Program-made: the position numbers and the translations under genes | The notes under the pieces: generated by a model | Databases searched by the model: none | What the model was told of the DNA's origin: nothing | What the model saw: only the letters and a program-made list of their open reading frames with translations | Part shown: piece by piece, positions 44,352-64,000 of the stretch | Layout: each line of letters starts with the position of its first letter | How positions within the stretch are numbered: position 1 is the first letter of the stretch | Origin: an uncultured delta proteobacterium | GTDB taxonomy: Bacteria; Desulfobacterota; BSN033; UBA1163 | NCBI GenBank assembly: GCA_963708295.1 | Contig: CAVPSJ010000017.1 | Coordinates: 64,001 to 128,000, forward strand | DNA: 64,000 nucleotides | Reading direction: 5' to 3'

Positions 44352-44406
44352 ATTTCAGATTGAAAAGGTGTTCAATTCGAAATTTGCGATTTGAAATTTG
44401 AAATTC
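44331..44406. repeat. 7-nt-period (ATTTCAG / TTGAAAT) inverted array
   Basis: atttcagattgcagattttagatttcagatt / aattcgaaatttgcgatttgaaatttgaaat. Confidence 0.75.
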
Positions 44407-44407
44407 A

Positions 44408-45481: not shown

Positions 45482-45501
45482 GAAGAAGAGGAGAGAAGAA
45501 G

Positions 45502-47028
45502 TTGAAAGCACAGGTCAAAATATTCGACACCACCCTCCGGGACGGAGAGCAATCCCCCGGGGCGACGATGAATGTAGCCGAAAAAGTGAGGATCGCCCAG
45601 CAGTTGGAGAAGCTGGGAGTCGATATCATCGAGGCCGGGTTCCCTATTTCCTCTCAGGGGGACTTTGAAGCGGTCAGGACGATTTCGAGAACGATCATCC
45701 ATTCAGAGGTAGCTGCTTTGGCCAGAGCAAATCCCCAGGATATCGACCGGGCCTGGGAAGCGGTCAAGGGGGCCAAATTTCCCCGGCTTCATACGTTCAT
45801 CTCGACCTCCGATATCCATCTCAAGCATCAGCTCAAAAAATCAAAAGAGGAGGTGATTCGGATTGCCTCCCAGTCCGTGGCCAGGGCAAAACGGCTAACT
45901 CCGAATGTCGAATTTTCAGCCATGGATGCCACCCGAAGCGATGTGAAGTTTCTGGCCGCAGTGACCGAAGCGGCGATCCGCGCGGGGGCAACCACCATTA
46001 ACATCCCTGATACCGTCGGTTACGGGATTCCCTCCGAGTTTGGAGCATTGATTCAAACCCTCCGGCAAACGGTGAAAGGGATTGACAGGATTACGCTAAG
46101 CGTTCACTGTCACAATGATCTTGGTCTGGCCGTTGCCAATTCTCTTGCTGCCGTTCAGAACGGCGTCAGACAGGTGGAGTGTACCATCAACGGAATCGGG
46201 GAAAGGGCAGGGAATACCTCCCTCGAAGAAGTCGTCATGACCATCCGAACACGAAAGGATCTCTTCCCGTTCTTTACCCGTGTGAATCCGAAGCATATCT
46301 TTGCCACCAGCCGTTTGGTCTCGAAGATCACCGGCATGGTCGTTCAGCCCAACAAGGCCGTGGTCGGCTCGAATGCCTTTGCCCATGAGTCCGGGATTCA
46401 TCAGGATGGTGTCCTCAAGGAAAAGGAGACCTATGAGATCATGACACCGAAGTCGGTGGGAATCCCGAAATCCTCCCTTGTCCTGGGAAAACTCTCCGGG
46501 CGGCACGCTTTCAAAGAGAGGCTGAAAGAATTGGGATTCCGGCTCTCGGAGGATGATTTTGGCCTGGCCTTCAACCGCTTCAAAGAACTTGCGGACAAGA
46601 AGCGTGAAATCTATGACGAGGATATTGAGTCGATCGTGGTAGAGGAGATCCTCCGGATGCCCCGGCGCTATAAACTCATCTATCTCAACGTCATTGCAGG
46701 AAACATCACCATTCCAACGGCGACTGTGAAGATGGAGGTGGATGGGAAGCTGATGCAGGAGGCAGGTTTTGGCGATGGGCCGGTGGACGCCCTGTTCAAG
46801 ACGATCAAAAAAATCACCCGGACGAAGTCGAAACTCCTCCAATTCGCCATCAATGCGATCACCGGGGGAACCGAAGCCCAGGGAGAGGTGACCGTGAGGC
46901 TGCAGGAAAAGGGTCAGACCGTCATGGGACAGGGGGCAGATACGGACGTCATCGTGGCCAGTGCGAAGGCCTACATCAATGCCCTGAATAAAATAGAGTT
47001 CAAAAAACAGATACGGGTGAGATTATAA
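45502..47028 (+). CDS. leuA: 2-isopropylmalate synthase
   Basis: [37 protein letters not shown], regulatory C-terminal domain. Confidence 0.96.
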
Positions 47029-48314
47029 TGGCGACCATTCATCCAATGACGATCACAGAAAAAATACTCGCCTCTCATGCCAAGAAAAGAGAGGTTTCCC
47101 CAGGCGACCTGATCGATGGCCGTGTCGATCTGGCCCTCGGAAACGATATCACCGCTCCTCTGGCTATCCAGGCCTTCGAGGAGATGGGTGCGAAAAAGGT
47201 ATTCCACCGGGATCGTGTCGTCTTAGTCCCCGATCATTTCGCGCCTGCCAAAGACATCCTTTCCGCGGAACAATGCAAAGTCCTCAGAAATTTTGCAAGG
47301 GCCCATCGTCTTACCCACTATTTTGAAATTGGGGAATGCGGGATCGAGCATGCCCTTCTCCCTGAAAAGGGGCTGGTTCTACCGGGGGAGGTGGTCATCG
47401 GAGCGGACAGTCATACCTGTACCTATGGCGCCCTCGGGGCCTTCTCAACCGGAGTGGGCAGCACGGACCTTGCGGCGGTGATGGCCACGGGGAGGCTTTG
47501 GTTCAAGGTTCCGGAGAGCATCAAGTTCATCTTTTACGGAAAGGTCAACCCGTGGGTCTCCGGCAAAGATCTGATTCTCTTTACGATCGGGCAGATCGGC
47601 GTTGATGGAGCCCTCTATCAGGCCATGGAATTTACCGGAGAGACGATCCGGACGCTGCCCATGGAGGGTCGATTCACCATGGCCAATATGGCGGTCGAAG
47701 CCGGGGGGAAATCCGGCATTTTTGATCCCGACCCAATAACCCTCCAGTACGTCAAGAAGAGGGCCGCGAGGCCTTATAAGCTCTACCATAGTGATCCGGA
47801 TGCCAAATACAAAAAGGTATATGAATATGATGCCTCAAGAATCCATCCCCAGGTTTCTCTTCCTCACATTCCTTCGAACAGCAAAGATGTAAAGAAGATT
47901 GGAAAGATCGAGATCGATCAGGTGGTCATCGGCTCCTGTACCAACGGCCGTCTCGAAGACCTCCGGGTGGCGGCAAGGATATTGAAGGGGAAAAAGATTG
48001 CTCCTTCATTGCGACTGATCGTCATTCCTGCCACTCAAGAGGTCTACCGTCAGGCTTTGAAGGAGGGGCTGTTGGAAATATTCCTGTCGGCAGGCGCTGT
48101 CATCAGTCCGCCTACCTGTGGCCCTTGCCTCGGGGGCTATATGGGCGTCTTGGCAGAAGGGGAGAGGTCGTTGGCCACCACGAACCGTAATTTTCGGGGA
48201 AGGATGGGTCATGCCCAGAGCGAGGTCTATCTTGCAAGCCCCGCTGTGGCCGCCGCCAGCGCCGTCAAAGGAAGAATCTGTCATCCGGAAGAGGTCGTAA
48301 GAAAGAGGGGATGA
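47028..48314 (+). CDS. leuC: 3-isopropylmalate dehydratase large subunit
   Basis: [31 protein letters not shown]. Confidence 0.95.
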
Positions 48315-48349
48315 GGATCAAGAATTCAAGTCGTCAAATAAATGGTCGA

Positions 48350-48640
48350 TTAAGCACTAAACTCGAAGCACGGGCGAAGCATCCCGAAGGGATCAATCCG
48401 AAACAGTTTAAACTCTAAACACCAAGCTCTAAACCCTAAGCAAATCCAAAATCTAAAACTTAAAAGTATACGGTTTGGAGTTTTGTGCTTTGGATATTTG
48501 AGTTTGCCCGCCCTGTTAAGTATGGGATGAGTTATTTCTGGCTTGATTTTCTTGAGTCCTCCGAAAAAGTGAGATCATTGATCTCATACAGATTTCCTTA
48601 ACAGGGTAAAAGCTTAGGATTTCGAGTTTAGAGTTTGACA
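48350..48640. repeat. 7-nt-period (AAACTCT / AGAGTTT) inverted array with a nested TIR element
   Basis: aagcactaaactcgaag…aaactctaaacaccaagctctaaaccctaag / tttggagttttgtgctttggatatttgagttt…ggatttcgagtttagagtt; CCCTGTTAAG…CTTAACAGGG at 48511-48606. Confidence 0.75.
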
Positions 48641-48690
48641 GGGGTTCCAAATTTCTTAAGATAAAAAATTCGTGAGCAGAGGAAACAACG

Positions 48691-49194
48691 ATGAAGTTAA
48701 ACGGAAGAGCTTGGAAATTCGGATCCGATGTTGACACCGACGCAATCATTCCCGCCCGCTATCTCAATCAGACGGATCCTGGAGAGCTTGCCAGACATGC
48801 AATGGAGGATGAGCGACCCGAATTTGTTCGGGAAGTCAAGAAGGGAGACATCCTTGTGGCCGAAAAGAATTTCGGCTGCGGTTCTTCCCGGGAACATGCT
48901 CCCCTCGCTTTGAAGGCAACGGGGATCTCTTGCGTGATCGCAGAGACCTTTGCGCGCATTTTCTACCGGAATGGATTTAACCAGGGACTTCCCCTCCTGG
49001 AATCCCTTGAGGCGTCGAAGGAAATAAAGGACGGAGATCTGGTTCAAGTGGATCTGACGACAGGAGAGATCTTCGACCTGACACAGCAGAAAAAATATTT
49101 TTCAAAACCCATCCCACCGTTTATGCAGGAACTGATAGAGGATGGGGGATTGATCCTTCACCTCCGAAAAAGGGGGTTGAAGGGAAATAAATAA
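48691..49194 (+). CDS. leuD: 3-isopropylmalate dehydratase small subunit
   Basis: VDTDAIIPARYL, NFGCGSSREHA, FARIFYRN. Confidence 0.95.
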   Translation: MKLNGRAWKFGSDVDTDAIIPARYLNQTDPGELARHAMEDERPEFVREVKKGDILVAEKNFGCGSSREHAPLALKATGISCVIAETFARIFYRNGFNQGLPLLESLEASKEIKDGDLVQVDLTTGEIFDLTQQKKYFSKPIPPFMQELIEDGGLILHLRKRGLKGNK

Positions 49195-49458
49195 AGCCCA
49201 ACCCATCCCAGGCCCGCCTGTGAGATATCGACCTTTCTTCTGAAGATCGGATCAAGCCTCGGTATAAAAGCAAAGAGACTGAAGTCTCCCCTGCCTTGAA
49301 GATTCAAACGTAACAAGTTTGAATGACGTTAGGACAAAATTGCAAGAAAATTGACAAAAACGGTCCTTGCCTGGCATCAAACCCGTTATCTCAACCTGCC
49401 TATCCTCATATTCATAAATAATTACGGATGCTTATATAAGATGTGGCATAGACAAGAG

Positions 49459-49474
49459 TGGCATAGAAAATGCA
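49459..49474 (+). promoter_or_regulatory. Sigma-54 (-24/-12) promoter
   Basis: TGGCATAGAAAATGCA, GG-N10-GC spacing, about 95 nt upstream of ATG 49569. Confidence 0.7.
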
Positions 49475-49568
49475 ATATTTTAACCCCGTTGAATCCATTG
49501 GACTGCATCTTTATGGAACCTATCTGCTTTTCACCGCAACCCATCTCAAACTCTAGGAGGAAAGGGGT

Positions 49569-50018
49569 ATGAATTACACAAAAACCGTTCTGTTAATCGT
49601 GTTGCTGCTCGTCGTGGGGGCTTGCTCTCCGAAGATCTATGGTACGGTCCAACTCCTGGACCCAAACCTGCAGCCGATTCTGCCTGCGAAGGAAAGTCCG
49701 CAAGGGACCGTGGTGAACATGATCAACACGACAACAACCCTTGAGAAAGCGTCCGGAGCCACCGTATCGGACGGAGAGGGTAAATTCAAGTCGGGTAAGG
49801 ATTACATTATTCCGGGAGTCTATAAAGTTGAAGCCAACAGAATCGGCTACATGACGGAGACGCAGACCGTCAAGATCAAGAAGTTCGGGTCGAAGAAAGT
49901 GGAGTTCAAGCTCAAGAAGATCCCGGAGGGGAACCGCAAGTCCATCGAAGGTTCCAAGTCGGACGAAGATAAGATTGTCAACCCGGGCGAGGTCAATATC
50001 CAGCCGCCCACGATGTAA
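49569..50018 (+). CDS. Lipoprotein with carboxypeptidase-regulatory-like beta-sandwich
   Basis: Lipobox VGAC; G.V…SDGEGKF…PGVYKVEANRIGY..ET..V. Confidence 0.8.
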   Translation: MNYTKTVLLIVLLLVVGACSPKIYGTVQLLDPNLQPILPAKESPQGTVVNMINTTTTLEKASGATVSDGEGKFKSGKDYIIPGVYKVEANRIGYMTETQTVKIKKFGSKKVEFKLKKIPEGNRKSIEGSKSDEDKIVNPGEVNIQPPTM

Positions 50019-50098
50019 GCAGATCACTAAAATCCGGGTTCCCACAGGGAGTCGTGGCTGCTCCACTTCTAAAAAGCAGCTTTCCCAGGAGGTCTCTT

Positions 50099-52672
50099 AT
50101 GATGAAGCACGCGATCAGGACGGTTCTTGTGATGTTTGGGGCATTTTCGCTGTTTTCGTGTTCGGGCGAAAACCTGGAACTCAAGGTGAAAGCCCGCCTG
50201 GACGGCGAGCCGGCAGCTCAAGCCAAGGTCATGGTGGACAACGAGGAGCAGGGCCTCACCGGCACGGACGGGATCTTTTCAAAGATCTTAAAGAAGAAAC
50301 CGGGGGTTGAGGTTGAGATCGTTGTCTCCAAGGAGATGCCAGGATACCGAATCCAGCCCTGGAAGGGTAAGTTCGTCATGAAGCTGCCCAAGTCGGGTAC
50401 GATAGACGTGTATGCATTCGACGCGGACCTTGCAGCCACACGATATGTCACGGTCACGGCCACCGAAAAGGGGGCACCTATTGCGGACGCTATCGTCAGG
50501 GTAGCGGGAAAAGAAGTGGGCAAGACGGACGCGCAGGGGGTATTTGTGTACGAGTATAAGACCCTGCCAAAGTCGGGCGCAGACCTCACGGTGACCAAAT
50601 CGGGGTATGCAACATGGCGCAAGACCGGCAAGCTGGAGCCCGGCGAGAAACTCGAAGCCGCACTCAGCAAGCGTGTGGTTGTCACGATCAACACGCTCAT
50701 GGAGGAGTACGGCCAGTCGAATGGCATCCCGGGGATCGCCGTGAATATCAACCATAAGGAAGTAGGCAAGACGGATACCAAAGGCGTCCTTATCTACAAG
50801 TATGACGGCGAAACAGGCAGGAAGGTTCCCCTGACGCTTTCTGCCCCTGGGTACATCCCTGAAACCTGGAAGACCTCGATTGTTCTGGGGGGCGAGGTGA
50901 CTATCCAGCGTTATTTCTACCCCATCACCCCCAGGCCGATTCGCGCGGGGATCTACCGGTTCGTGAGCAACACCCCGAGCGCCGACCTCAAAGAGGTGCT
51001 CAACCAGACCGAGGCGTCGGTGGCTGCGCAACTGTTTAAGTACAGCTGTTTCCGCGAGGTACCGTCCCAGACGCTCCAGGCAGAGATGAAGCAAGCAAAA
51101 TTGAGCATTGAAAAGCTCGCTACAAAGGGGTGGCACGAGACGCCCCTCAAAAAGACAGTAGACATGATCATCCTCGGAAGCGTTGCCAAGGATGAGAAAG
51201 GTTTGCTGATCGAGACGAAGTTTCACACCTCGGGCGGAAAGCTCATCCTGAGCCACATCGCCCGGGCCAAGAACATCGGCGACCTCAACAGCGCAGCAAA
51301 GGAGACGGCCAACGCCGTGCTTGAGCGCTTTCCTTTCGAAGGCACGGTGGTTTCCTCCGAGGGCGAACGGTATCGGATTAACCTCGGTAAATCAGGGTAC
51401 CGGATTGCCAAGGGGACAGACTTTACACTGATGGCCCCCCGTCTCGCAGAGACAGGAAAGGTATCAGGCTACCGCGAGACCGGAAGGCTTAGGGTGAAGA
51501 AGGCCGAAGAAAGCGCTTCGTGGACCGAAATCGAAGAACTGAAAAAAGATGAAAAGATCACGATCGGCGACCGCGTGGTTCGTCGTGTCTATCGCGAAGG
51601 CGAAGAAGAGGCCAGCCGCAACACGTTCATCCTCTCGGCAAAGGGCGGCCTGCCACCGGATGCTTCCCCCCTTGCAGCCGTGAATATCTATGTGAACGAT
51701 GAGTGGCTCGGGTCGACAGGAACGGATGGCAAGGCCGAGGTCCCCGTGCGTCTCAACAAGAGCTTTACGCTGATGCTCTACCGGCACGGATACCAGCCAG
51801 TGACCGAAAGGCTGAAGATCGAAAAGAGCAAAGACGTGAAGGAATTTGTGCTCGCCGTCAACAATGCGATATTCAAGATCGACTCCGAGCCGTCCTCTGC
51901 CGGTGTCTTCGTGGACGGTGAAAAGATCGGACAGACGCCGATCCTTGACGGGAAGCCGGTGAGCCTGGGTTTCCATACGGTCAAAGTCTCTGTGGGCGGG
52001 GACTTCCGAGACTGGGAAGAGGTGGTGGAGTTCTCCAGGAAAGAAGAGGATCGAACGGGCGACCGAAAGATCTTCCTGCCTAAAGACTACCTCAAGATCG
52101 GCCAGCGGGCCCAACAGAAGGGCGATCTCGAAGGAGCGGTCCAGGCCTACAAGAGCACCGAGAAAGGGCACCCGGACTACTCCGAGGCCCATCACCGATT
52201 GGCGCAGATCTACCTCGACGAGAAGGGCGACTACGACGCCGCCACCAGGGAATTCGAGAATGTTCTCTCGCTGCCCGAAAACCAGCAGTTGATCTACAAG
52301 CAGTTTTCAGTGGCCTTCATGAACCTGGGGCATGCGTACTATGAGAAGGGAAATGCCCTCGTACAGAGGGACAAGGAGGCGGCTGCTCAGAATTTCGCTA
52401 AGGCGGTCCAGAATCTACAAATCGCAAAGCAGAACACACGTTTTTTCCCGACCGTGCACTATGACGAGGCCGTGCATGACACCTACTACTATACGGCTCT
52501 CTCTTACCACAAACTCTATCTGATCACGCGGAAGAACAACCTTCTGAACAACGCGAATCTCGCGTGGCGGGAATACTTCGATTTTTTCCCTCGAAAGCTT
52601 GAGGGAAATGGTGCCTTTGAGAAAACCAAGGAAGGGGCGCAGAAATACTGGGATCAGATCAAAAATCTGTAA
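50099..52672 (+). CDS. Large lipoprotein: repeated beta-sandwich/PEGA modules, CsgG/TolB-N-like and FlgT-C-like core, C-terminal TPRs
   Basis: Lipobox LFSC after AGGAGG RBS; five V.V..(E).G.T..(G/P) modules including the PEGA-like IDSEPSSAGVFVDGEKIGQTP; FEGTVVS..GE.YRINLG…IGDRVV; TPR helices. Confidence 0.8.
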   Translation: MMKHAIRTVLVMFGAFSLFSCSGENLELKVKARLDGEPAAQAKVMVDNEEQGLTGTDGIFSKILKKKPGVEVEIVVSKEMPGYRIQPWKGKFVMKLPKSGTIDVYAFDADLAATRYVTVTATEKGAPIADAIVRVAGKEVGKTDAQGVFVYEYKTLPKSGADLTVTKSGYATWRKTGKLEPGEKLEAALSKRVVVTINTLMEEYGQSNGIPGIAVNINHKEVGKTDTKGVLIYKYDGETGRKVPLTLSAPGYIPETWKTSIVLGGEVTIQRYFYPITPRPIRAGIYRFVSNTPSADLKEVLNQTEASVAAQLFKYSCFREVPSQTLQAEMKQAKLSIEKLATKGWHETPLKKTVDMIILGSVAKDEKGLLIETKFHTSGGKLILSHIARAKNIGDLNSAAKETANAVLERFPFEGTVVSSEGERYRINLGKSGYRIAKGTDFTLMAPRLAETGKVSGYRETGRLRVKKAEESASWTEIEELKKDEKITIGDRVVRRVYREGEEEASRNTFILSAKGGLPPDASPLAAVNIYVNDEWLGSTGTDGKAEVPVRLNKSFTLMLYRHGYQPVTERLKIEKSKDVKEFVLAVNNAIFKIDSEPSSAGVFVDGEKIGQTPILDGKPVSLGFHTVKVSVGGDFRDWEEVVEFSRKEEDRTGDRKIFLPKDYLKIGQRAQQKGDLEGAVQAYKSTEKGHPDYSEAHHRLAQIYLDEKGDYDAATREFENVLSLPENQQLIYKQFSVAFMNLGHAYYEKGNALVQRDKEAAAQNFAKAVQNLQIAKQNTRFFPTVHYDEAVHDTYYYTALSYHKLYLITRKNNLLNNANLAWREYFDFFPRKLEGNGAFEKTKEGAQKYWDQIKNL

Positions 52673-52692
52673 GGCCTTCGGGAGGAGGGTAG

Positions 52693-53874
52693 GTGAAGGC
52701 TAAGAGAGACTACCGAGCTCTGGGTTGGATTCTGATTTTTTTGTCGTTTTTCGGCGTGTATGCGGGAATGGCTGACGAACTTCCACCGGTCCCGACGATG
52801 ACGGACCAGAAGCCTGAACTGATTGAGCCCTGGTTCGTCCGACCTTTGGTCAAGATCGAGTCGGGGCGAAATGACTCGAACCCTGCCTGGTCGCCCCGCG
52901 GTGTGTTCGTGGCCTTTGAGCGGAGCGTCGGCGACAAGAAGGAGATCCACATTACCCTTTCTGACGGGACGCCGATCCAAACTGTTTATTTCATGCTTTC
53001 CGACGGGAACAAGGAGACGAAGTTCTTTCTCCCCGGGGTGTCCGAGGAGACGAGCTACAACGCAGGAATCACCTGGGCGCCCGATCAATGCCGGTTCGTC
53101 TACATGAGCAACGGCGGGGAAGGCAACTACGATATTTACCTTCAGGACCTCGGGATCAAGGTCCCAGTACGGCTGACAGACCACAAGGAAAAGGACGGAC
53201 AGGCTGACTGGTCTCCGGTATCCGACCGTCTCGTCTTCGTATCCGGCCGCACCGGCAACGGCGACATCTATCTCCTGGATCTCAAGACCCGCGGTCTGAC
53301 GCGGCTGACCCAGGGAGGCGAGGCCTATCTCTACCCCCGGTGGTCTCCCGATGGCAAGCGGCTCGTGATGATGCGGGGCAGCAGTGAGAACCATAACATC
53401 CTCATGATCAATGATCCTGCAAGACCGACGGAGTCCCAACAAATACTCACGACCTGGCCTTACGACGACCTACGGCCCACCTGGTCGCCCGATGGGAAAA
53501 AGATCGCCTTCTACTCGAACTACAACCCCGAAGGCGATCCCAGGATATGGTCGATCGTTGTGATCGCGGCAGACGGGTCAGATCCCACCGAAGGAGAGGG
53601 GCTCGCTGCAAAGATCGTGGCGACGGACGTCATTCCGGACGTTGAGGTGGGGCCGTCGTGGATGCCGGACAGCAGCCGGATCGTCTTCGTGAAGAATGAC
53701 CGGCGGGAATATAACCCGATCTATGTCGCCGACCTGAAACAGAAGACGATCCTTCCACTCAAAACCGACACCAAAATGAACCATGATATTACATGTTCTT
53801 CGGACGGGACGATCGCTTTCCGCGCTCAGGTTGACCAGTGGGATCAGGTCTTCCTGATGAAACTGAAGGACTGA
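52693..53874 (+). CDS. TolB-like PD40 beta-propeller, exported
   Basis: Signal peptide; repeated P.WSPDG..I.F motifs (PAWSPRG, WAPDQ, WSPVS, PRWSPDG, PTWSPDG, PSWMPDS). Confidence 0.9.
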   Translation: MKAKRDYRALGWILIFLSFFGVYAGMADELPPVPTMTDQKPELIEPWFVRPLVKIESGRNDSNPAWSPRGVFVAFERSVGDKKEIHITLSDGTPIQTVYFMLSDGNKETKFFLPGVSEETSYNAGITWAPDQCRFVYMSNGGEGNYDIYLQDLGIKVPVRLTDHKEKDGQADWSPVSDRLVFVSGRTGNGDIYLLDLKTRGLTRLTQGGEAYLYPRWSPDGKRLVMMRGSSENHNILMINDPARPTESQQILTTWPYDDLRPTWSPDGKKIAFYSNYNPEGDPRIWSIVVIAADGSDPTEGEGLAAKIVATDVIPDVEVGPSWMPDSSRIVFVKNDRREYNPIYVADLKQKTILPLKTDTKMNHDITCSSDGTIAFRAQVDQWDQVFLMKLKD

Positions 53875-53888
53875 TAGGAATTCTGGGT

Positions 53889-55382
53889 ATGAGACGTCTT
53901 GGGTTCCTCCTTTCATCGGTCATTCTGATGGCTGCGGCTCACGCCTTTGCCGCCGACGACGTGGTGACCCGTGCGATGAAGCTATACGAAAAGCGGCATT
54001 ATCAATGAGGCGGCAAGGAGCCTCCGCTGCGGAGGGCGCTTCCATCGAGCAAGGCAAGAAGGGAAGCGCAAACCTTGTCCTCGGCATGATCTATTTTAAG
54101 AACGCTGTGCTCCATCGCGAGCTTTATCAGGCGGCAGTGGCGGCGTCGCAGGACTACCTGAAGAAGCTGTCGGCCGCCCAGGGCAAAGACCGGAGCCGTT
54201 TTGTAGACCTCTACTTCGGCGAGGCGCTGGTCGAGTCGGGCAAGCCGGGTGTTGCAGCAAATCATCTGAAAAGATTTTCACAGGGCAATGGGGTTGAGTC
54301 GCGGTACCGGGCGATCGCTCAAGTCTGCCTTGGGCTCGGCTACTACCGGAACAATGAAGCCTCAAAGGGAACCGAGCTCTGGGGAGGGATTGATGCCTCT
54401 GACCTGGAAGTGAAGGCCGAACTCGCCTCTGCCTACAGCAAGGCTGGCCTTAAGGAAAAAGACCCATCCGTGATGGCAGAGGGTATCCTCTCAGAGATAA
54501 AGAGGTCCTCCAAACCCGTTTCGATGCGGATGATGAAGAACCTGATCGCCATCTACGCCCGGGGATCGGGATCCGTTGAAAAAGGCCTGGATCTGCTCGA
54601 GCATTCAGATTTAAGAGCCTTTTCGTACCGGGAGGTCCTGGGAAAATCCAAGGTGATCCATTTCTATGACCTTTCCCTACTCAACGATATGGCCACCCTT
54701 TATGGCCGGGCGAGTGTGGGCTGCCTGGAGAAGGCTGCTGCCGACCCGAAGGTGAGGGATGCGGCAGAGTTCCATCTCGGTCAGGCCTACGCGTTTTTCG
54801 GTTCGGTCGAGCAATCTTCAAAAGTCATCGCATCATTCGTGGCCACATCGCAGATGCCCGAGCAGTACAAGGACCGGTTCCGGGTGTGGCAGGGTGCCAA
54901 CCTTTACGCAAGAAACCGGCAGAGCGATGCCATAGGCGTGTGGGATGAGCTGTTGCGAAAGCAACCCGAGGACCGGGACCTGATCGCGGAGGTCCTTTTT
55001 GCATGCGGCCGGATGAAGGCCGAATGCCCGAAAGTGCTCCACAAGGCCACTGAGCTGGTCGAGGCGGGAGAAAGCAAGAAGCTGTCTTTACTGAACATCG
55101 CTATCGGCAAGTACCTTCTCTCCAAACTGGGATGATGCCCGGGCGGTCTCGTACCTGGAGGCCGGCCGCGACAAAAGCAATAAGAATAAGATTGAGTCGA
55201 ACGACCCGGCGATGCTCGTGAGTCTTGCCGATGCGTACTACCGGACCAAGAAATTTTCCGAGGCCCTCGAGATCTATTTCGAAATGAGCAAGCACTTTCC
55301 CGAAGTGCGCCAGATCCAGGAGGCGATGCAGGGCGTTTACGCCATCGAGCACAAGAGCGCAGGAGACGTCAAGATCAACTGA
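53889..55382 (+). CDS. Exported TPR/alpha-helical repeat protein (indels at about 54005, 54028 and 55128)
   Basis: Manual: MRRLGFLLSSVILMAAAHAFA signal from ATG 53889 joins the 54005-55135 ORF and continues …LADAYYRTKKFSEALEIY…SAGDVKIN* at 55382. Confidence 0.75.
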
Positions 55383-55395
55383 TGACAGATCATGG

Positions 55396-55482
55396 GGAAT
55401 TCGGGCTGCGGAAAGAACCCAAGCGGACTCCTGATTGTTACCCGTTCCGCATTCGGCATTCCGGATTCCGAATTCCGAATTT
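55396..55482. repeat. 7-nt-period (TTCCGNA) inverted array
   Basis: gaattcgggctgcggaa / ttccgcattcggcattccggattccgaattccgaatt. Confidence 0.65.
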
Positions 55483-55498
55483 TGATGAGGAGGTCATT

Positions 55499-57115
55499 AT
55501 GAAACGCATACTGGTCATTCTGCTTCTTTTCGTGGCCGCCGCTTTGACGGCGTTCACTGCTGCCGAGGCAGGCCGGAAAAAGGACAACAGGCCGGACGGA
55601 GGCAGCCTGAATTATGGGGAATACGGCAGGCCGGCGACCCTCGACCCCATCACGAGCAACGAGATGATCTCGCTGCGCCTTACGGAACTCATCTTCAACG
55701 GCCTGGTCGGGATCAACGAGAAACAGGAGATCGTCCCGGAGCTTGCAGAAAGATGGGACCGTTCTGCCGACAGCCGAACCTACACCTTTTTTCTCCGGAA
55801 GGACGTGATGTGGCATCCGAAAGAAGGTGAAGAGCCCAAGCCGTTTACGGCGGAGGACGTCATTTTCACCTACAAGATCATGATGCATCCGAGGACCATT
55901 ACCCCCCTCAAGGTGAGGTATGAGTTCATCAACGCGGTTGAAAAACTTGATGATTATACCGTCAAGTTTACGCTGAAACGGCCGATCCTGAACGCCCTAG
56001 CCAAGTTCAGCTTCAAGGTGATTCCGAAACACGGGCCGAGCAACCCCCTCTACCTCACCCGGGAAGATCCGTTCGTACGGAACCCCATCGGGACCGGCCC
56101 CTATCTTTTGAAGAACATCACGGCCGAGCGTGAAATCGTCCTCGCTGCGAATGAAAACTACTTCAAGGGAAGACCGCATGTCGACAGGTTCATCGCCAAG
56201 CCCTTCGCGGACCAGAACATCATGACCCAGGCGCTGATGTTCAATGCGATCGACATGATCGTCCTCGTTAATCCCCGGGACATCCCCGAGATTCAGGGAG
56301 ACAAACGGTTCATCCTTCAGCCATACAACGCGCTTTCGTACTCGTTCTTCGGGTATAACATCCGAAGTCCCCTTCTCGCGGATAAGCGTGTGCGCAAAGC
56401 CTTTACCCACGCCGTGAACCGGCAGGAGATGCTCGACTCGTTCTTCAACGGCCAGGGAACCATCATCTCCGGACCTTTTGCACCCGGGAGCTGGGCTTAT
56501 AACCTCGATGTGCAGCCTGTGCCGTTTGATCCCGAAAAGGCAAAGACCCTTCTACAGGAAGCCGGCTTCACCCGCGGTGCTGACGGATTCATGCAGAAGG
56601 ACGGCAAACGGTTGGCACTGACGCTGAAAGTCCCGATCGAGAAAGAGAGCGAGGCCGTGAAGCGTGTGGTGCTTGCATTCAAGAACTACCTTAAGAACGT
56701 CGGTGCGGACATCAAGGTGGAGTTCAAGGAGTGGCAGGCCTGGAAGGAAGACGTCTTCTTCGAGCACGATTTCGACATCATCTTCGCCATATGGGTCTTT
56801 GACGACTCGGCGGACATCTCGTCGCTCTTCCATTCCGGCGAGATCGGTGCCTGGAAGAACAATTTCGGCGGATACTCCAACCCGGAAGTGGACGGCTTGA
56901 TCAACGAGAGCAAGCTGACGCTCGACCACGAGAAGCGGCGCACAATCAACCGGAAGCTCCATGCAATCCTGGCTGAGGAAAACCCTTACACCTTCCTCTG
57001 GACGCTCACCAACTACGGGGCATACCACAAGAAGGTAAGGCGCGTGGCCATCCATCCGTACAAGTTCTTCTCGTACGCGGATGATTGGTTCATCGAGGAG
57101 AAGGATCAAAAATAA
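55499..57115 (+). CDS. Peptide/nickel-type ABC transporter substrate-binding protein (OppA/AppA-like, SBP family 5)
   Basis: Signal peptide; TLDP, IFNGLV..PELAE.W, FTAEDVIFT, PIGTGPY, DKRVRKA, NFGGYSNPEVD. Confidence 0.93.
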   Translation: MKRILVILLLFVAAALTAFTAAEAGRKKDNRPDGGSLNYGEYGRPATLDPITSNEMISLRLTELIFNGLVGINEKQEIVPELAERWDRSADSRTYTFFLRKDVMWHPKEGEEPKPFTAEDVIFTYKIMMHPRTITPLKVRYEFINAVEKLDDYTVKFTLKRPILNALAKFSFKVIPKHGPSNPLYLTREDPFVRNPIGTGPYLLKNITAEREIVLAANENYFKGRPHVDRFIAKPFADQNIMTQALMFNAIDMIVLVNPRDIPEIQGDKRFILQPYNALSYSFFGYNIRSPLLADKRVRKAFTHAVNRQEMLDSFFNGQGTIISGPFAPGSWAYNLDVQPVPFDPEKAKTLLQEAGFTRGADGFMQKDGKRLALTLKVPIEKESEAVKRVVLAFKNYLKNVGADIKVEFKEWQAWKEDVFFEHDFDIIFAIWVFDDSADISSLFHSGEIGAWKNNFGGYSNPEVDGLINESKLTLDHEKRRTINRKLHAILAEENPYTFLWTLTNYGAYHKKVRRVAIHPYKFFSYADDWFIEEKDQK

Positions 57116-57164
57116 GTTCAAAGTTTAAGGCTTAAAGTCCAAAGTTCAAAATGATTGTCTAACC

Positions 57165-58130
57165 ATGAAGCTTTCGGCGGTTCGGCCCATTGCCATGGTG
57201 CTGTCCAGGGAGTTGATGATCACGGCGCTTCTGCTTCTGGGCGTGAGCTTCGTGGTCTTCATCATCCTCTTTGTGTCGCCCGGAGACCCTTTCAGCGTTC
57301 TCCTCGAAGGGCAACTTTCGACAGCAGAAGTCAGGGAAGGGGTGCGCGAAGCCATGGGCGTCTCCCGATCGTGGTACATGCAGTACCTGTCCTGGCTCGC
57401 GGGTATGCTGGCAGGCAACTTCGGCACTTCGATTCGGATGGGTTTGCCGGTCCTCCCTGAAGTGCTGCGCGTTGGGTTCAACACCCTCCTCCTGACCCTC
57501 GGGTCGCTCATCATTACCCTATTGATCGCCGTGCCCATCGCCCTCTATTCCGCCGTCCGGGGAACCGACAAGATCTCGTGGCCCCTAACGATGTTCTCCT
57601 ACGTCATCTCTGCCCTGCCGGTGTTTTGGCTGGGGTACATTGTTATCTATTTCTTTACGCACAAACTCGGTCTTTTTCCGCTTGCTTTCGGTTTCTCGAG
57701 TGGGGGGCAGAAATATCGCTGGCTCTATCAGCTCCTCCCGATTTTCGTGCTGGGGGTGGGGAACGGTACGATCAGCGAGGTCATCCGATTTCTTCGGCAG
57801 GAGATGGGCAGGGTGATAGCCGAAGACTACATTCGCACGGCTCGGGCCAAAGGCGCCTCGGTCTGGAGACATTCATTCAAGGAAGGCTTGCTCATACCCG
57901 TGACGGAGATCGTTGCCTCCAAGATTCCCTTCATCCTCGGCGGCGCCGTCATCGTCGAGCAGGTGTTCAACTGGCCCGGCATGGGCAGGATGGCGTGGCA
58001 GGCGGCACAGGATCGGGATTACCCGGTGATCATGGGCATTGCTATCCTTGCCGCGATCCTTGTCCGCATGGGCAGCCTGTTCCAGAGCGTGGTGTACGTC
58101 ATCGTGAACCCGAGGGCCTCCAAGGAATAG
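57165..58130 (+). CDS. Opp/Dpp ABC permease, B-type
   Basis: PGDP, QYLSWL..GNFG.S, LPVFWLG, DYIRTARAKG, VEQVFNWPGMG, RDYPVI. Confidence 0.93.
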   Translation: MKLSAVRPIAMVLSRELMITALLLLGVSFVVFIILFVSPGDPFSVLLEGQLSTAEVREGVREAMGVSRSWYMQYLSWLAGMLAGNFGTSIRMGLPVLPEVLRVGFNTLLLTLGSLIITLLIAVPIALYSAVRGTDKISWPLTMFSYVISALPVFWLGYIVIYFFTHKLGLFPLAFGFSSGGQKYRWLYQLLPIFVLGVGNGTISEVIRFLRQEMGRVIAEDYIRTARAKGASVWRHSFKEGLLIPVTEIVASKIPFILGGAVIVEQVFNWPGMGRMAWQAAQDRDYPVIMGIAILAAILVRMGSLFQSVVYVIVNPRASKE

Positions 58131-58157
58131 CGTCATTGTGGGATGCGGAACCTGAAA

Positions 58158-58328
58158 AAATTTCAAATAACAAAAAGATTTGCTGACGGATTTATCATCC
58201 GCGAAGTTTGAAAATTATCCAGGATGATCCTTTCCCTTGACGAGGAGGATCGAGGCGGGGATGGCCAAAAACAAGCTGCAAACAAACGCGAAATTGAAAT
58301 TGTGAATTTGGATATTATTTGGAATTTG
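58158..58328. repeat. 7-nt-period inverted array with a nested hairpin inside the ABC operon
   Basis: aaatttcaaataacaaa / aaattgaaattgtgaatttggatattatttggaatttg enclosing atcctttcccttgacgaggaggat. Confidence 0.55.
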
Positions 58329-58330
58329 CT

Positions 58331-59224
58331 ATGAAGCACTATTCCCAAATACCCGGTGAGATCAGCGACCTCTCGGACCAGCCGTTCTGGAAAAAAGCGG
58401 ATGCGGTCGATCTGGCTTATGTCGGCTACGGGCTGCTCATCGTCACCCTCGTCGTGGTATCTTACCTTCTCGGCTCGTTCAACCTCCTGCCCCGGGATCC
58501 GCAGGAGATCGACCTTGGGCTCTTGATGGCGCGACCAGGGACGGAAGGCCACCTCCTTGGCACGGACTTCATGGGTCGGGATATGCTCTCGCGACTCATT
58601 GTAGGCATCCAGGCCTACTTCCTGCCCGGCCTGCTGGCGATCTTTATTGCGCTCTTTTTCGGTACGGTGCTCGGTGTGGCTGCCGGCTACCGGGGTGGCA
58701 AGTTCGACACGGGCATTACCTATTTCACCAACCTCGTCGATTCCTTCCCACGTCTCGTGCTCATCCTGCTTGTGATCGCTGCCTTCAAACCCGATATCTA
58801 CTACATCATGGGGGTCGTCGGCTTCACGAGTGTTCCGGTCGTGACGTCGCTCATCAAGGGCAAGATCCAGTTTCTGAAAGAGAAGAATTTCATCGAGGCC
58901 GACGTCGCCCTGGGTCTGCCAACGAGCACCATTATCCTGAAGCATGTCCTCTGGCACAATTGCCGGTCGCTCCTCATCATCCAGGCGACGCTCGGCATGG
59001 CCGAAGCCATCCTGATGGAGACGTCGCTCAGTTACCTCGGCTTCGGCGTGCAGGAGCCCACGCCCTCTTGGGGCAATATGGTGCAGTCGGGCGCCAACTA
59101 TTTCATGCAAGGGAAGTTTTGGCCATCCACGGCTCCGTCGCTCGCCATCCTGCTCACGATCCTTGGGTTCCACATGCTCGGCGATGGGCTGAATAACATC
59201 CTGGAAGGCAAGAGGCACGCATGA
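58331..59224 (+). CDS. Opp/Dpp ABC permease, C-type
   Basis: HLLGTDFMGRDMLSRL, FIEAD.ALG, E.SLSYLGFG..PTPSWG.M, LGDGL. Confidence 0.93.
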   Translation: MKHYSQIPGEISDLSDQPFWKKADAVDLAYVGYGLLIVTLVVVSYLLGSFNLLPRDPQEIDLGLLMARPGTEGHLLGTDFMGRDMLSRLIVGIQAYFLPGLLAIFIALFFGTVLGVAAGYRGGKFDTGITYFTNLVDSFPRLVLILLVIAAFKPDIYYIMGVVGFTSVPVVTSLIKGKIQFLKEKNFIEADVALGLPTSTIILKHVLWHNCRSLLIIQATLGMAEAILMETSLSYLGFGVQEPTPSWGNMVQSGANYFMQGKFWPSTAPSLAILLTILGFHMLGDGLNNILEGKRHA

Positions 59225-60321
59225 CAACGGCGCCGATCCTGAAGATAGAAGACCTTCGCACCTACTTCTATTCCCGCAGCAGGCAGGCCTTCATTCGCTC
59301 CGTGGACGGGGTCAGCCTGGAGATTGCGAAAGGGGAGACCCTCGGCCTTGTCGGCGAAAGCGGCAGCGGTAAAAGTATCACTGCCCTGTCGGTCATGGGG
59401 CTGATCAGCGCCGGGCCTGGCGTGATCAGCGGAAAAATCGGGTTCAGGTCGGACCGGAGCCAAAAGGATTTGCTTCGGGATCTGAAAGACTTCGTTAAGC
59501 TTACGATGAGAGACGGTAGGATCATGGATGTGAGCAAGGACGTTCTGGGATGGGAACGAAACACGGAGCGCACCATGAAGAAGTTGCGCGGCAAGGAGAT
59601 TGCGATGATCTTCCAGAACCCCAAATCCTGCCTCAATCCCTTCACGCCCGTGGGAAAACAGATTACCGAGGCGATCCGGCTCCATACCTCCGCAAAAGCC
59701 GAGCCGGCGGCCAGGGAGCGTGCGCTCACCTGGCTTGACCGCGTGAAGATGGATTCCCCCCGCCTCCGGTTCGACAATTATCCTTACGGTCTCTCGGGCG
59801 GCATGTGCCAGCGGGCCATGATCGCCATGGCCCTGGCATGCGAGCCGTCACTCCTGATTGCAGACGAGCCGACGACGGGCCTCGACGCCACGATCCAGTC
59901 AAAGATCGTGGACCTCCTTGCCGAGCTCAAGTCAGAACTTGGCGTCACCACCCTGCTGATCAGCCATGACATCAGCATGATCTCCCGTCTCTCCGACAGG
60001 GTTGCCGTCATGTATGGCGGCACCGTTTGCGATTACGGACCGGCAAGGTCGATCCTGTCGACAGGGTTAGAATCGAAGCATCCGTATACATCGGCGCTCC
60101 TCGCGTCCATTCCGAGCGCCAAGAACATCAAAGAAAAGGGATATCTCCAGGCCATTGAGGGAGATGTGCTCGACACCATCAATATCCCTGAGGGATGCCG
60201 GTTCTACAGCCGATGCAACCGGGTGACGGAGAAGATTCGTGAGAAATGCGCAAGTCATGAACCTGACCTTCGAGAGATAGAGTCGGGACACAAGGTAAGG
60301 TGCTGGTTGTATTTTGATTAA
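59221..60321 (+). CDS. Opp/Dpp ABC ATPase, D-type
   Basis: GESGSGKS, IFQNP, LSGGMCQR, IADEPTT, HPYT..LL, GCRF..RC…VRCW. Confidence 0.95.
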   Translation: MTTAPILKIEDLRTYFYSRSRQAFIRSVDGVSLEIAKGETLGLVGESGSGKSITALSVMGLISAGPGVISGKIGFRSDRSQKDLLRDLKDFVKLTMRDGRIMDVSKDVLGWERNTERTMKKLRGKEIAMIFQNPKSCLNPFTPVGKQITEAIRLHTSAKAEPAARERALTWLDRVKMDSPRLRFDNYPYGLSGGMCQRAMIAMALACEPSLLIADEPTTGLDATIQSKIVDLLAELKSELGVTTLLISHDISMISRLSDRVAVMYGGTVCDYGPARSILSTGLESKHPYTSALLASIPSAKNIKEKGYLQAIEGDVLDTINIPEGCRFYSRCNRVTEKIREKCASHEPDLREIESGHKVRCWLYFD

Positions 60322-60543
60322 ACCTTCGGCTAGATTGACGAGCCTTACCGGGAACACTCCCGGAGTCTTGTCATGCGGGTTTCATTGGGATGGAATGGGT
60401 TATTGACGATTTTATGTATAGGGAATTTCAGCTAAGTTGGGGATCGCAGTGCTTCACGCTTAAAAGGTTCCGCAATAAAGCTCTTTCAGTGTCCCCGGCA
60501 AGTCTCGCCAGGGGTTTATTGCAACATTAGGATGAGAGTTCTT

Positions 60544-61554
60544 ATGCCGAAGACGATTCTCGAGGTCACTGACCTCAAGAAACATTTTACCTATGGGAAA
60601 GGCCTCTTTTCCTCCCTCAAGGACCAGCAGCCGTTCATCCCTGCGGTGGACGGGGTAAGCTTTTACCTCAAGGAGAATGAGACGATGGGACTGGTCGGCG
60701 AATCCGGCTGCGGCAAGACAACCATCGGCCGGACTGTTTTGAGGCTTGAAAAACCGACCTCCGGTCAAATCATCTTCGACGGAAAGGACATCACGCGCGT
60801 TCCGACCCATGAACTCCGGCAGCTTCGGAGCCAGATGCAGATGATTTTCCAGGACCTGGATGCAGCCCTCAATCCCAAGATGCGCATCCGCGATATTCTC
60901 TCCGAAGCGATCACCGTCCATCACCCGATCAGCGATGCCGAGGTGGAGAAGCGCATCAACGAGCTGCTCGAGCAGGTGAACCTTAAAAAGAGCAAGCTTT
61001 CCAACTTTCCCCACGAGCTCTCGGGCGGCGAAAAGCGGAGGGTCGGCGTGGCGCGTGTGCTTTCCGTTGGAGCCAAGTTTATTGTCGCCGACGAGCCCAC
61101 GAGTGCCCTCGACGTCTCCATCCAGGCGCAGGTTGTAAACCTGCTCCTAGACCTTCAACGGAGACTCGGACTCTCCTACCTCTTCATCTCTCACGACCTT
61201 CGGGTGGTAGAACTCGTCAGCCATAAGGTCGCGGTGATGTACCTGGGCAAGATCGTGGAGATCGGTCTTTCCGACCGCATTGCGAACAGAGCCAGTCACC
61301 CCTACACCCATATCCTCTGGTCTTCTCTGGCCGAAAAACAGAGCAGGGAGGCTGCCCGGACGGCGAGGAGCGTCCAGGCAGGTCAATGGGGTGTGTTTGA
61401 TTTCGAGCGGCCCGTTGCCGGCTGCCGTTTTGCCCCGCGCTGTCCGGTCTATGAGTCCACGGGGAAGCCGGAGGTTTGTATTGCCCCTTTCAGCGAACCG
61501 CAGTTGAAGGAGATCGGCGAAGCCCATCAGGTCGCCTGCCACTTCCCGCTGTAG
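60544..61554 (+). CDS. Opp/Dpp ABC ATPase, F-type
   Basis: GESGCGKT, QMIFQD, PHELSGG, DEPTSALDVSIQAQ, GCRFAPRC…VACH. Confidence 0.95.
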   Translation: MPKTILEVTDLKKHFTYGKGLFSSLKDQQPFIPAVDGVSFYLKENETMGLVGESGCGKTTIGRTVLRLEKPTSGQIIFDGKDITRVPTHELRQLRSQMQMIFQDLDAALNPKMRIRDILSEAITVHHPISDAEVEKRINELLEQVNLKKSKLSNFPHELSGGEKRRVGVARVLSVGAKFIVADEPTSALDVSIQAQVVNLLLDLQRRLGLSYLFISHDLRVVELVSHKVAVMYLGKIVEIGLSDRIANRASHPYTHILWSSLAEKQSREAARTARSVQAGQWGVFDFERPVAGCRFAPRCPVYESTGKPEVCIAPFSEPQLKEIGEAHQVACHFPL

Positions 61555-61981: not shown

Positions 61982-64000
61982 ATGAAAGACGCATTTATAG
62001 CCATTCATGGTCATTTCTACCAGCCTCCCCGGGAAAACCCCTGGCTCGAAATCATCGAGACCGAGGAAAGCGCCCATCCCTTCCATGACTGGAACGAACG
62101 GATCACCCTGGAGTGCTACCGGCCCAATGCTCATGCCCGGGTCCTGGATGGAAAAGGCAAGATTCTGGAGATCGTCAATAATTATTCTTCGATCAGTTTC
62201 AATTTCGGCCCCACGCTTCTCCCCTGGCTGGAGAGGCGTTTTCCTTCGGTCTATCAGAAGATCCTTGAGGCGGACCGGGAAGGGTTGAAGCGATTTGGCC
62301 ATGGGAATGCCATCGCGCAGGTTTTTAACCACATCATCATGCCTTTGGCCAATGACAGGGATAAAGAGACAGAGGTTCTCTGGGGAACGGCCGATTTTGA
62401 AAAACGGTTTCATCGTAAGCCCGAGGCCCTGTGGCTTCCTGAAACAGCGGTCAACTATGCCACCCTTCGGACATTGGTCAAGTATGGGATGCGCTATCTC
62501 ATCCTGAGCCCCTTTCAGGCGTCGAGGGCAAAATCCTTCGGAGGGAGAAAGTGGACGGATGTATCGCAAGGCCGGATCGATACGACGCGACCTTACCGGT
62601 GTTTTATGAAAGACGCATCCGGCAAAAAGCTCTTAGATCAGTTCATCGACATCTTTTTTTACAACGGTACCGTTTCAAGGGAGATTGCCTTCGGGGATCT
62701 CTTAAAAGACGGCAATGCCCTCTGCGATCGATTTTCCCAATTCTACCAGCAGTCGAAGGAAAAACCTCAATTGATTCACATCGCGACGGATGGCGAGACC
62801 TACGGGCACCACATGAAATTTGGAGAGATGGGCCTGGCCTATGCGTTGGCCAAAGGCTTTCCAGCAAGGGGTTTTGAGCTGGTGAATTACGCGGCTTTTT
62901 TGAAGCGATTTCCTCCTGTCCACGAAGTGGAAATTGATGAGGGGCCGAAGGGAGAGGGAACCTCCTGGAGCTGTGCGCATGGTGTGGGGAGATGGAAAGA
63001 GAATTGTGGGTGCAGCACCGGAGGAGAGCCCGGATGGAATCAGGAATGGAGAAGACCCCTGCGGGAAGCTCTGGATCTTCTACGGGACGAGCTGAGCCGT
63101 GTTTTTGAGAGAGAAGGGGAAGGGATATTTCAAGATGTGTGGCAGGCTAGAAATGGATATATTGAAGTGATCCTCAACCGGTCTCCGGAGAAGGTCGAGA
63201 GCTTTTTTGAGCAATATGGGGTAAAAGGGCTCGATGAAAAGGGCAGGCTCAAAGGGCTCAAGCTCCTGGAAATGCAGAGGCACGCCTTACAGATGTATAC
63301 GAGTTGTGGCTGGTTTTTTGTCGACCTGTCAGGAATCGAAACGATCATCGTCCTTCAACATGCATCCAGGGCCATCCAGCTGGCCGCAGACTGGACAGGT
63401 GAAGAGATTGAGAGGACATTTGTTCAACATTTGTCGGAAGCCAGGAGCAATGTTCCTGAGATGGGAAAGGGCGATCAAGTTTACGAGCGTTTGGCAAAAC
63501 CGAAATGGGTCACGCCCGAAAAAGTGGTAAACCACTTTGCCATCACCTCCCTGTCGGATAGCGGGGACGGAGAGAAGAATGTCTTTTCGTATCGGGTGGA
63601 GAAGATTCACTACGAAAAAATGGAGGACGAAGAGAATTTGTCGGTCGTAGGCCAGGTGAGGGTCACCGGCGAAATCATTCCAGAGCCCAAAGAATTTCTC
63701 TTTGGATTGATTCCCTCCAAGAAAGAGGTTTTTCGGACCTGGATCCTGGAAAAGAAAGAAGGACTCGATTTTAGGACCTTAGAAGAGAAGGCACAAGAGA
63801 ACTTTGGCAAAGGTGAAGAAGAAATGGCCCGGGTTCTTACTTCACTCCTCGGGAATCGCATTTTCACCATTAAAGATACTTTTAAAGAGGAAAGACAAGC
63901 GATCTTTCGGAAACTCATCCAAGAAGAATTTGACGAACACTGCCAGATTTACGCTGACCTTTTCGACAGGACGAAGCAGGCGGTCGAGGCGTTATCCAGA
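61982..64000 (+). CDS. Glycoside hydrolase family 57 / DUF3536 protein (partial, runs off the window end)
   Basis: Manual: MKDAFIAIHGHFYQPPRENPW…HDWNERIT.ECY; NFGPTLL, WLPETA, ATDGETYGHH, SWSCAHGVGRW, MYTSCGWF. Absent from the ORF track because it has no stop in the window. Confidence 0.92.
   Translation, partial: MKDAFIAIHGHFYQPPRENPWLEIIETEESAHPFHDWNERITLECYRPNAHARVLDGKGKILEIVNNYSSISFNFGPTLLPWLERRFPSVYQKILEADREGLKRFGHGNAIAQVFNHIIMPLANDRDKETEVLWGTADFEKRFHRKPEALWLPETAVNYATLRTLVKYGMRYLILSPFQASRAKSFGGRKWTDVSQGRIDTTRPYRCFMKDASGKKLLDQFIDIFFYNGTVSREIAFGDLLKDGNALCDRFSQFYQQSKEKPQLIHIATDGETYGHHMKFGEMGLAYALAKGFPARGFELVNYAAFLKRFPPVHEVEIDEGPKGEGTSWSCAHGVGRWKENCGCSTGGEPGWNQEWRRPLREALDLLRDELSRVFEREGEGIFQDVWQARNGYIEVILNRSPEKVESFFEQYGVKGLDEKGRLKGLKLLEMQRHALQMYTSCGWFFVDLSGIETIIVLQHASRAIQLAADWTGEEIERTFVQHLSEARSNVPEMGKGDQVYERLAKPKWVTPEKVVNHFAITSLSDSGDGEKNVFSYRVEKIHYEKMEDEENLSVVGQVRVTGEIIPEPKEFLFGLIPSKKEVFRTWILEKKEGLDFRTLEEKAQENFGKGEEEMARVLTSLLGNRIFTIKDTFKEERQAIFRKLIQEEFDEHCQIYADLFDRTKQAVEALSR

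Follow-up and report, generated by a model that had tools for sequence, protein, structure and literature searches.

A conserved nine-gene operon pairing exported envelope proteins with an Opp-type transporter in uncultured bacteria

Why would an oligopeptide-type ATP-binding cassette (ABC) transporter be encoded behind four exported, scaffold-like proteins? The question is raised by a 64,000-nucleotide stretch of contig CAVPSJ010000017.1 from an uncultured delta proteobacterium (hereafter the window), in which nine genes, labelled A to I, lie on the forward strand between positions 49569 and 61554 (Table 1). An earlier note, made from the letters of the window alone, had described nine co-oriented, closely spaced genes for two lipoproteins, a TolB-like propeller, a secreted TPR protein, a solute-binding protein, two permeases and two ATPases. 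Open reading frames and Pfam and NCBIfam profiles bear out this content and orientation; the close spacing holds at most junctions and fails at the F/G and H/I gaps, each of about 190-210 nt. As a whole, the unit matched no known system and is a real, conserved and undescribed module. Our preferred reading, held at a little under even odds (roughly 45%), is that it forms a self-contained envelope machine that is mobile and serves surface life, controlled by cyclic dinucleotides (by sigma-54 in the window's copy), whose binding protein E would hold one fixed ligand.

The nine genes are conserved and inherited together

A species-genome scan with B confirmed 115 relatives, of which the best 80 were analysed as loci (numbered with the prefix L). 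The carriers among these 80 span five phyla and comprise Nitrospirota, Desulfobacterota, Rokubacteria, beta- and gamma-proteobacteria and one Gemmatimonadetes record. Gene order is violated in none of the 80 loci: 42 hold all nine genes, and among the 38 partial ones 36 end at a contig or locus edge while the other two have unrelated DNA inserted after F. Around the module, conservation of flanking genes does not extend past single lineages in the related loci compared. Accessory and transporter trees built from 32 loci have 12-22 of 29 splits in common, and the B and E trees 22 of 29, against at most 2 at random, an agreement that host kinship inflates. Fixed order and congruent trees, together with the missed cut-offs of the named Opp, Dpp, Nik and Sap families (see below), strongly support the earlier proposal of a dedicated, conserved and uncharacterised unit.

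The distribution is patchy: full-length matches came from 6 of 41 near relatives, from 3 of the 401 host-phylum genomes and from 30 of 151 genomes of Nitrospirota, the phylum of locus L013. In the tree of B, the window's sequence nests among Nitrospirota sequences (support 99/96), and a single Desulfobacterota clade is rejected (p-AU 0.00014, approximately unbiased test), the group having been picked after earlier trees and the tree being unrooted. Horizontal transfer of the module is likely on this sequence evidence, and its direction is only suggested. A plasmid search gave no match to B. In full-text literature, with supplements outside the search and subscription papers mostly missing, no description of the nine-gene module was found. 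Of 30 bins, 29 are covered by contigs of a single RNA library, and one of these contigs runs across the C-D junction; this proves neither transcription nor co-transcription.

Table 1. Genes and control elements of the module, in window coordinates.
Feature	Position	Strand	Description	Basis
A	49569..50018	+	149-aa lipoprotein, one beta-sandwich, near-invariant C-terminal tail	weak CarboxypepD_reg match (Pfam)
B	50099..52672	+	856/857-aa lipoprotein, putative scaffold	Pfam beta-sandwich domains, PEGA, TPR; AlphaFold2 model
C	52693..53874	+	393-aa exported TolB-like beta-propeller	PD40, E 2e-33 (Pfam)
D	53889..55382	+	~495-aa exported TPR solenoid, frame broken in this assembly	homologue comparison
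E	55499..57115	+	538-aa family-5 solute-binding protein, AppA-like, separate clade	Pfam SBP_bac_5, tree
F	57165..58130	+	OppB-type permease	Pfam, NCBIfam
G	58319..59224	+	OppC-type permease	Pfam, NCBIfam
H	59221..60321	+	OppD-type ATPase, oligo_HPY tail, catalytic motifs intact	Pfam, alignment of 50 sequences
I	60532..61554	+	OppF-type ATPase, oligo_HPY tail, catalytic motifs intact	Pfam, alignment of 41 sequences
Sigma-54-type -24/-12 promoter	49459..49474	+	TGGCA-N7-TGCA; GG 49460-61, GC 49472-73	
Conserved upstream element	49332..49366	+	putative enhancer, predicted binding site of a sigma-54 activator	

The binding protein and its transporter

The content of the Opp/Dpp/App (PepT) family is present in full by Pfam, with a family-5 binding protein, two BPD_transp_1 permeases and two oligo_HPY ATPases. 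The products E to I nevertheless missed every listed NCBIfam cut-off (for H and I, those of the best 25 of 181 and 186 families); for E, the best score against OppA, DppA, NikA, SapA, GsiB and Opp4A was 212 bits at a cut-off of 650. Judged by sequence, the transporter belongs to the Opp/Dpp family and lies outside every named subfamily. Walker A, Q-loop, LSGG, Walker B and H-loop are all conserved in the alignments of H (50 sequences) and I (41 sequences).

E is the most conserved product of the module, with a mean identity of 82% to the window's E over 34 loci. Across phyla the mean is 80%, compared with 64% for ten housekeeping AppA-like proteins of one phylum, and E is 34% identical to such housekeeping proteins. 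The closest PDB structure is AppA of Bacillus subtilis (1xoc, E 2e-69). E and the binding proteins of a second, distant clade of the module (described below) form one clade apart from 11 housekeeping proteins (support 100/100, with a long-branch warning). AppA Asp154 and Arg373 are presumably the anchors of the free ends of a bound peptide. The matching sites hold Glu and Arg in the housekeeping relatives, and Ala or Arg together with Val, Ile or Leu in both operon clades; in the structure-search alignment to AppA, the Asp154-equivalent of E shifts by two residues and is still non-acidic. Because conservation is extreme and the end-anchoring Asp and Arg are replaced, E would fit a single fixed ligand without two free ends.

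A comparable case is the YejABEF system of Escherichia coli, which is not known to include scaffold genes. Its family-5 protein YejA is selective for a self-derived peptide and makes no defined contacts to the peptide ends, according to PMC10924461, and so offers a functional rather than a sequence-based precedent for a self-peptide ligand.

The four exported partners

Both lipoproteins carry Ser at position +2 in the window, as first read from the sequence, and Asp at this position occurs in 0 of 67 A and 0 of 63 B homologues. By the +2 rule for lipoprotein sorting in E. coli, which may not hold in the carrier phyla, A and B are predicted to be lipid-anchored in the outer membrane. The last 19 residues of A are its most conserved part (column identity 0.93, compared with 0.72 for the body); only four columns of this tail vary, and a Gly and a Pro are invariant in both clades.

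The AlphaFold2 model of B (predicted local distance difference test, pLDDT, 88.9; predicted template modelling score, pTM, 0.61) starts with three beta-sandwiches, continues through an alpha/beta core and a small barrel to two further sandwiches (PEGA), and finishes in a TPR region. In a Foldseek search with this model, FlgT ranked second and third (E 6e-11 and 2e-10), with a low whole-chain template modelling score and no residue ranges, and pilin-like and TolB entries surrounded these matches. With Pfam matches to FlgT below the cut-off, the FlgT-like character of the central core and barrel is no more than suggestive. VIA fold searches with B returned lists filled by TPR matches, and the B core of L072 weakly matched CsgG (E 0.011). 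An FHA domain, suggested for B by some Joint Genome Institute (JGI) names, was rejected, as no Pfam FHA match occurs in B or in 18 homologues; the long form of B has a Pro/Lys-rich linker where this domain had been suggested.

For C, the propeller stands by its PD40 match, and an identity with TolB does not: it scores 137 bits against the TolB model of NCBIfam, whose cut-off is 343, and gave no match to a TolB N-domain or a peptidase domain. C is apparently lipidated in the second clade.

D, read earlier as a secreted TPR protein, is an intact exported TPR protein in relatives, but its frame is interrupted in the window. It is a single open frame of about 490-500 residues in 64 of the 72 loci with a D match. 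In the window it is split into three pieces by one extra base at each of three sites, near 54002, 54027 and 55129 (reference L014, L016, L027). These bases are absent from close-relative contigs, and a frame change was seen in 1 of 15 genes compared; the extra bases could stem from an assembly error or reflect a recent gene loss. Modelled from the intact relative L014, D is a helical solenoid (pLDDT 92.5), for which fold searches returned generic helical repeats only. Its last 84 residues are far more conserved than the remainder (0.81 compared with 0.58).

Control by riboswitch in relatives and by sigma-54 in the window

In relatives, a GEMM-I (c-di-GMP-I, RF01051; c-di-GMP, cyclic di-GMP) riboswitch lies just 5' of A, above the Rfam gathering score in 9 of 13 loci. 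A pattern search recovered it in 30 of 67 loci, with 37 matches overall in 2.6 Mb. The nucleotide equivalent to G20, mapped from the Rfam consensus, is A in 27 of the 30 pattern matches. An intrinsic terminator overlaps the 3' end of the aptamer in all 27 A-type leaders, so that binding of the ligand would be expected to switch the operon on. An A at the G20 position marks riboswitches for cyclic GMP-AMP (cGAMP), and renders a Vibrio aptamer bispecific, as stated in the portions available of PMC6140456 and PMC5888326.

A candidate source of this ligand is encoded in the same genomes. Ser in place of Asp344 of PleD marks GGDEF enzymes that make cGAMP, as the accessible text of PMC9140294 has it. 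Such a Ser-type (Hypr) GGDEF protein was found in 20 of 48 carrier genomes, namely in 18 of 19 with an A-type riboswitch compared with 2 of 29 others, an association that comes from one query and is confounded by phylum. A conserved Ser-type protein with the motif HLEGS, often in two copies, was seen in 20 Nitrospirota-type genomes (L204-L230; for example L193:847-2052), and this family is a candidate cGAMP synthase family of Nitrospirota. A candidate cGAMP system, made of Ser-type GGDEF and A-type GEMM-I riboswitch, is thereby found in at least 18 Nitrospirota genomes.

The arrangement resembles the cGAMP regulon of Geobacter (GEMM-Ib, GacA) in its A-type GEMM-I, terminator-based ON control and Ser-type GGDEF in the same genomes. 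The candidate synthase of the relatives is GAF-GGDEF-like (GAF by eye), whereas GacA is a REC-GGDEF protein. Cytochromes, pili genes, transpeptidases and hypotheticals are the Geobacter targets named in the accessible part of PMC6456294, where the module is not mentioned; the same part describes cGAMP as driving a transient surface-associated state.

From five genomes, 30 of 52 riboswitch matches were fetched, 10 of them of the A-type subtype. Four of these ten precede this operon and four precede lipoproteins with at least five Big_2 (Ig-type) repeats; of the remaining two, one lies ahead of a TIG-domain protein and a small lipoprotein, the other ahead of a large unannotated protein.

Three side observations concern these leaders. 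An Asp-type receiver-GGDEF gene lies shortly 5' of riboswitch and operon in eight Nitrospirota loci (L013:8219-9121, L022, L038, L039, L043, L044, L048 and L051). The leader at L017:4284-4425 and similar ones have a variable hairpin of 50-60 nt inserted in the second stem-loop of the aptamer. The 4-Mb Nitrospirota genome of L013 (G430) contains 27 c-di-GMP-I riboswitch matches.

The window's own copy is preceded by the GG-N10-GC promoter that had been read from its letters, and the assignment was upheld. The motif TGGCA-N7-TGCA occurs 149 times on both strands of the 9.9-Mb genome (0.006 per 400 nt), and rpoN was found in that genome. In the close relatives L016, L024, L025 and L027 the motif is kept at identical spacing, together with the upstream element. 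The latter is present in 5 of 5 aligned close relatives, and its 12-base core is unique in the genome. A sigma-54-like motif stands 5' of 14 of 68 A genes, compared with a mean of 1.8 and a maximum of 7 in shuffles.

A second clade without adjoining transporter genes

Dozens of long-form B proteins (900-1130 residues) were found among the best 150 matches of a profile search. Nineteen metagenome loci of this second clade read A-B-C-E and then a PilZ protein with RxxxR and DxSxxG motifs, whose gene directly follows E in 9 of 9 loci where this part is complete (about six distinct organisms). No D, permease or ATPase gene is among the neighbours listed beside A-B-C-E. In three loci B adjoins PilZ and A, C and E are absent together, which fits a linked sub-module. 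The closest atlas cluster of the PilZ protein is mostly from Bdellovibrionota, the group from which the second clade probably comes.

A conserved, unannotated membrane protein of about 310-370 residues with the motif IYF[IVL]D opens second-clade loci (L122:7923-9524, L117:7902-9541, L126:8910-9872). An SH3-like lipoprotein often comes next, and the membrane protein is retained even in loci lacking A, C and E. Deeper branches of B were also seen (P0189, P0148, P0151, P0145), one cluster including a Spirochaetes member.

Proposed function and competing explanations

Read together, these results suggest a conserved, transferable envelope unit of uncultured bacteria from groundwater, sediment and soil (Nitrospirota, Desulfobacterota, Rokubacteria, Gallionellaceae, Acidiferrobacterales and others), tied to cyclic-dinucleotide signalling by two separate routes, riboswitch and PilZ. 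In the envelope machine proposed here, cyclic dinucleotides acting through the riboswitch, or sigma-54 in the window, would switch the module on for surface life. A and B would anchor the machine in the outer membrane, B serving as an extended, jointed scaffold that probably self-associates through its FlgT-like core. C and D, from their folds, could act as peptide-binding adaptors. E would bind one fixed ligand rather than mixed food peptides, for which the best candidate may be a peptide from within the module: A's near-invariant C-terminal tail, bound by either E or the propeller C. The ABC set might then either import the released peptide or spend ATP to reset E, leading to assembly, turnover or feedback of the structure. 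The contacts, the ligand and the phenotype of this machine are those we infer. The riboswitch and PilZ links speak for the earlier idea of a surface structure served by an ABC system. Should E recognise a tail from its own complex, the task of an Opp-type importer would here be structural or signalling.

Several results weigh against this proposal. The window contains no Rfam element, and its own copy has no riboswitch; every one of the nine GGDEF motifs detected in its genome is of the Asp type; the frame of its D gene is interrupted; and the core of its B gave no significant FlgT-type profile match and none in a PDB sequence search. Among B homologues, the best FlgT_C profile match reached 26.2 bits at a cut-off of 27. 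The tail of A in the second clade agrees with that of the main clade only at the Gly and Pro positions. In the main clade the transporter is complete with its catalytic motifs intact, as would be expected of a real importer. Housekeeping AppA-like genes often lie apart from permease genes, and the second-clade E may for this reason use permeases encoded elsewhere. No cultured carrier is named among the matches listed, so a phenotype is lacking.

A bolder form of the envelope-machine proposal is rather unlikely to hold in full. In it, the module is a new trans-envelope machine in which E grips the C-terminal tail of an outer-membrane lipoprotein and the ABC ATPase would be the motor or release switch on a surface scaffold, under control of cGAMP or c-di-GMP; the Bdellovibrionota-like version would keep the periplasmic core and answer to PilZ.

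The main rival, possible though doubtful, is a dedicated importer of one outside molecule such as a peptide signal, a metallophore or a polymer fragment. A to D would then form an outer-membrane capture complex that feeds E, with an oligomer of the CsgG/FlgT-like core of B as a possible passage. The complete, intact ABC set is what such an importer needs, the extreme conservation of E fits a single ligand, and the CsgG match of L072 could hint at a pore. Yet the module brings along no gene for a barrel receptor, an enzyme or ligand synthesis. TonB-dependent receptors, Pal/TolA and peptidase families are missing from the nine products by Pfam and NCBIfam, in agreement with the earlier note, and a TonB-dependent (Sus-like) locus would differ by its barrel receptor and degrading enzymes, which are also absent from the recurring neighbours. 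Control is by a cyclic-dinucleotide riboswitch or sigma-54, with no conserved nutrient regulator among the flanks, and in the second clade E has no transporter genes next to it. The earlier suggestion that the system captures and takes up an outside molecule becomes less probable with the lack of a co-travelling pore or enzyme gene and with a distant version that keeps E without an adjoining transporter.

An accessory role in motility, with B arranged like the FlgT H-ring around the base of a flagellum or type IV pilus, is improbable. The H-ring protein of Vibrio (PDB 3w1e, 8z5n) resembles the central alpha/beta domain and barrel of B by Foldseek and by weak FlgT_C matches in homologues; PilZ joins the module in the second clade; in L122, fliK/flgD are a few genes away; and cGAMP controls gliding in Bdellovibrio, as the available part of PMC9140294 indicates. 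In B, however, this region sits inside an 856-residue lipoprotein, and most carriers have no detected flagellar L-ring gene. FlgH was found in only 14 of 51 carrier genomes, among which drafts may be incomplete, and not in the window's; an obligatory flagellar link was rejected on this count. PilM was detected in 48 of 51 carriers; as 35 of 41 relatives, the majority of which lack the module, have it too, a type IV pilus link is non-discriminating. In the main clade, motility genes are not among the conserved neighbours.

Less probable still is a Tol-Pal-like or quality-control system for outer-membrane upkeep, in which the ABC set would recycle envelope peptides. C shares the PD40 propeller with TolB, the B model also matches TolB entries, and the TPR folds are chaperone-like; C, however, falls below the TolB cut-off without an N-domain match, Pal, TolA, TolQ and TolR are in neither the module nor its conserved neighbours, and a spread of 3 in 401 host-phylum genomes is unlike that of a housekeeping system. 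An ordinary oligopeptide importer that merely lies beside unrelated genes is very improbable: all five transporter genes are of the Opp/Dpp family, as in AppABCDF, Opp and Dpp (PepT), with a family-5 binding protein, a pair of permeases and two ATPases whose motifs are intact, but here four exported partners always precede the transporter in an order fixed across five phyla, the trees are congruent, and E belongs to a separate clade, common to the transporter-less version, without the end-anchoring Asp and Arg of AppA.

Flanking genes and minor variants

On the left, the module of the window is flanked by waaA-lpxK-leuA-leuC-leuD (43044-49194, names by eye from translations), and on the right by a GH57/DUF3536 gene (61982-64000). 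A waaA-like gene also borders second-clade loci, probably by coincidence.

The gap between F and G is a hotspot of unrelated inserts of up to several kb (L019, L039, L043, L044, L066, L067, L022, L038), which by eye include toxin-antitoxin-like pairs, a peptidase-like gene and membrane proteins. Four Desulfobacterota loci have a coiled-coil lipoprotein of about 210 residues 5' of A (L078:3-518, L081:3415-4041, L082, L084:8630-9265). In one Nitrospiria locus (L064:2935-3384), an extra small lipoprotein that resembles the first beta-sandwich of B lies between A and B.

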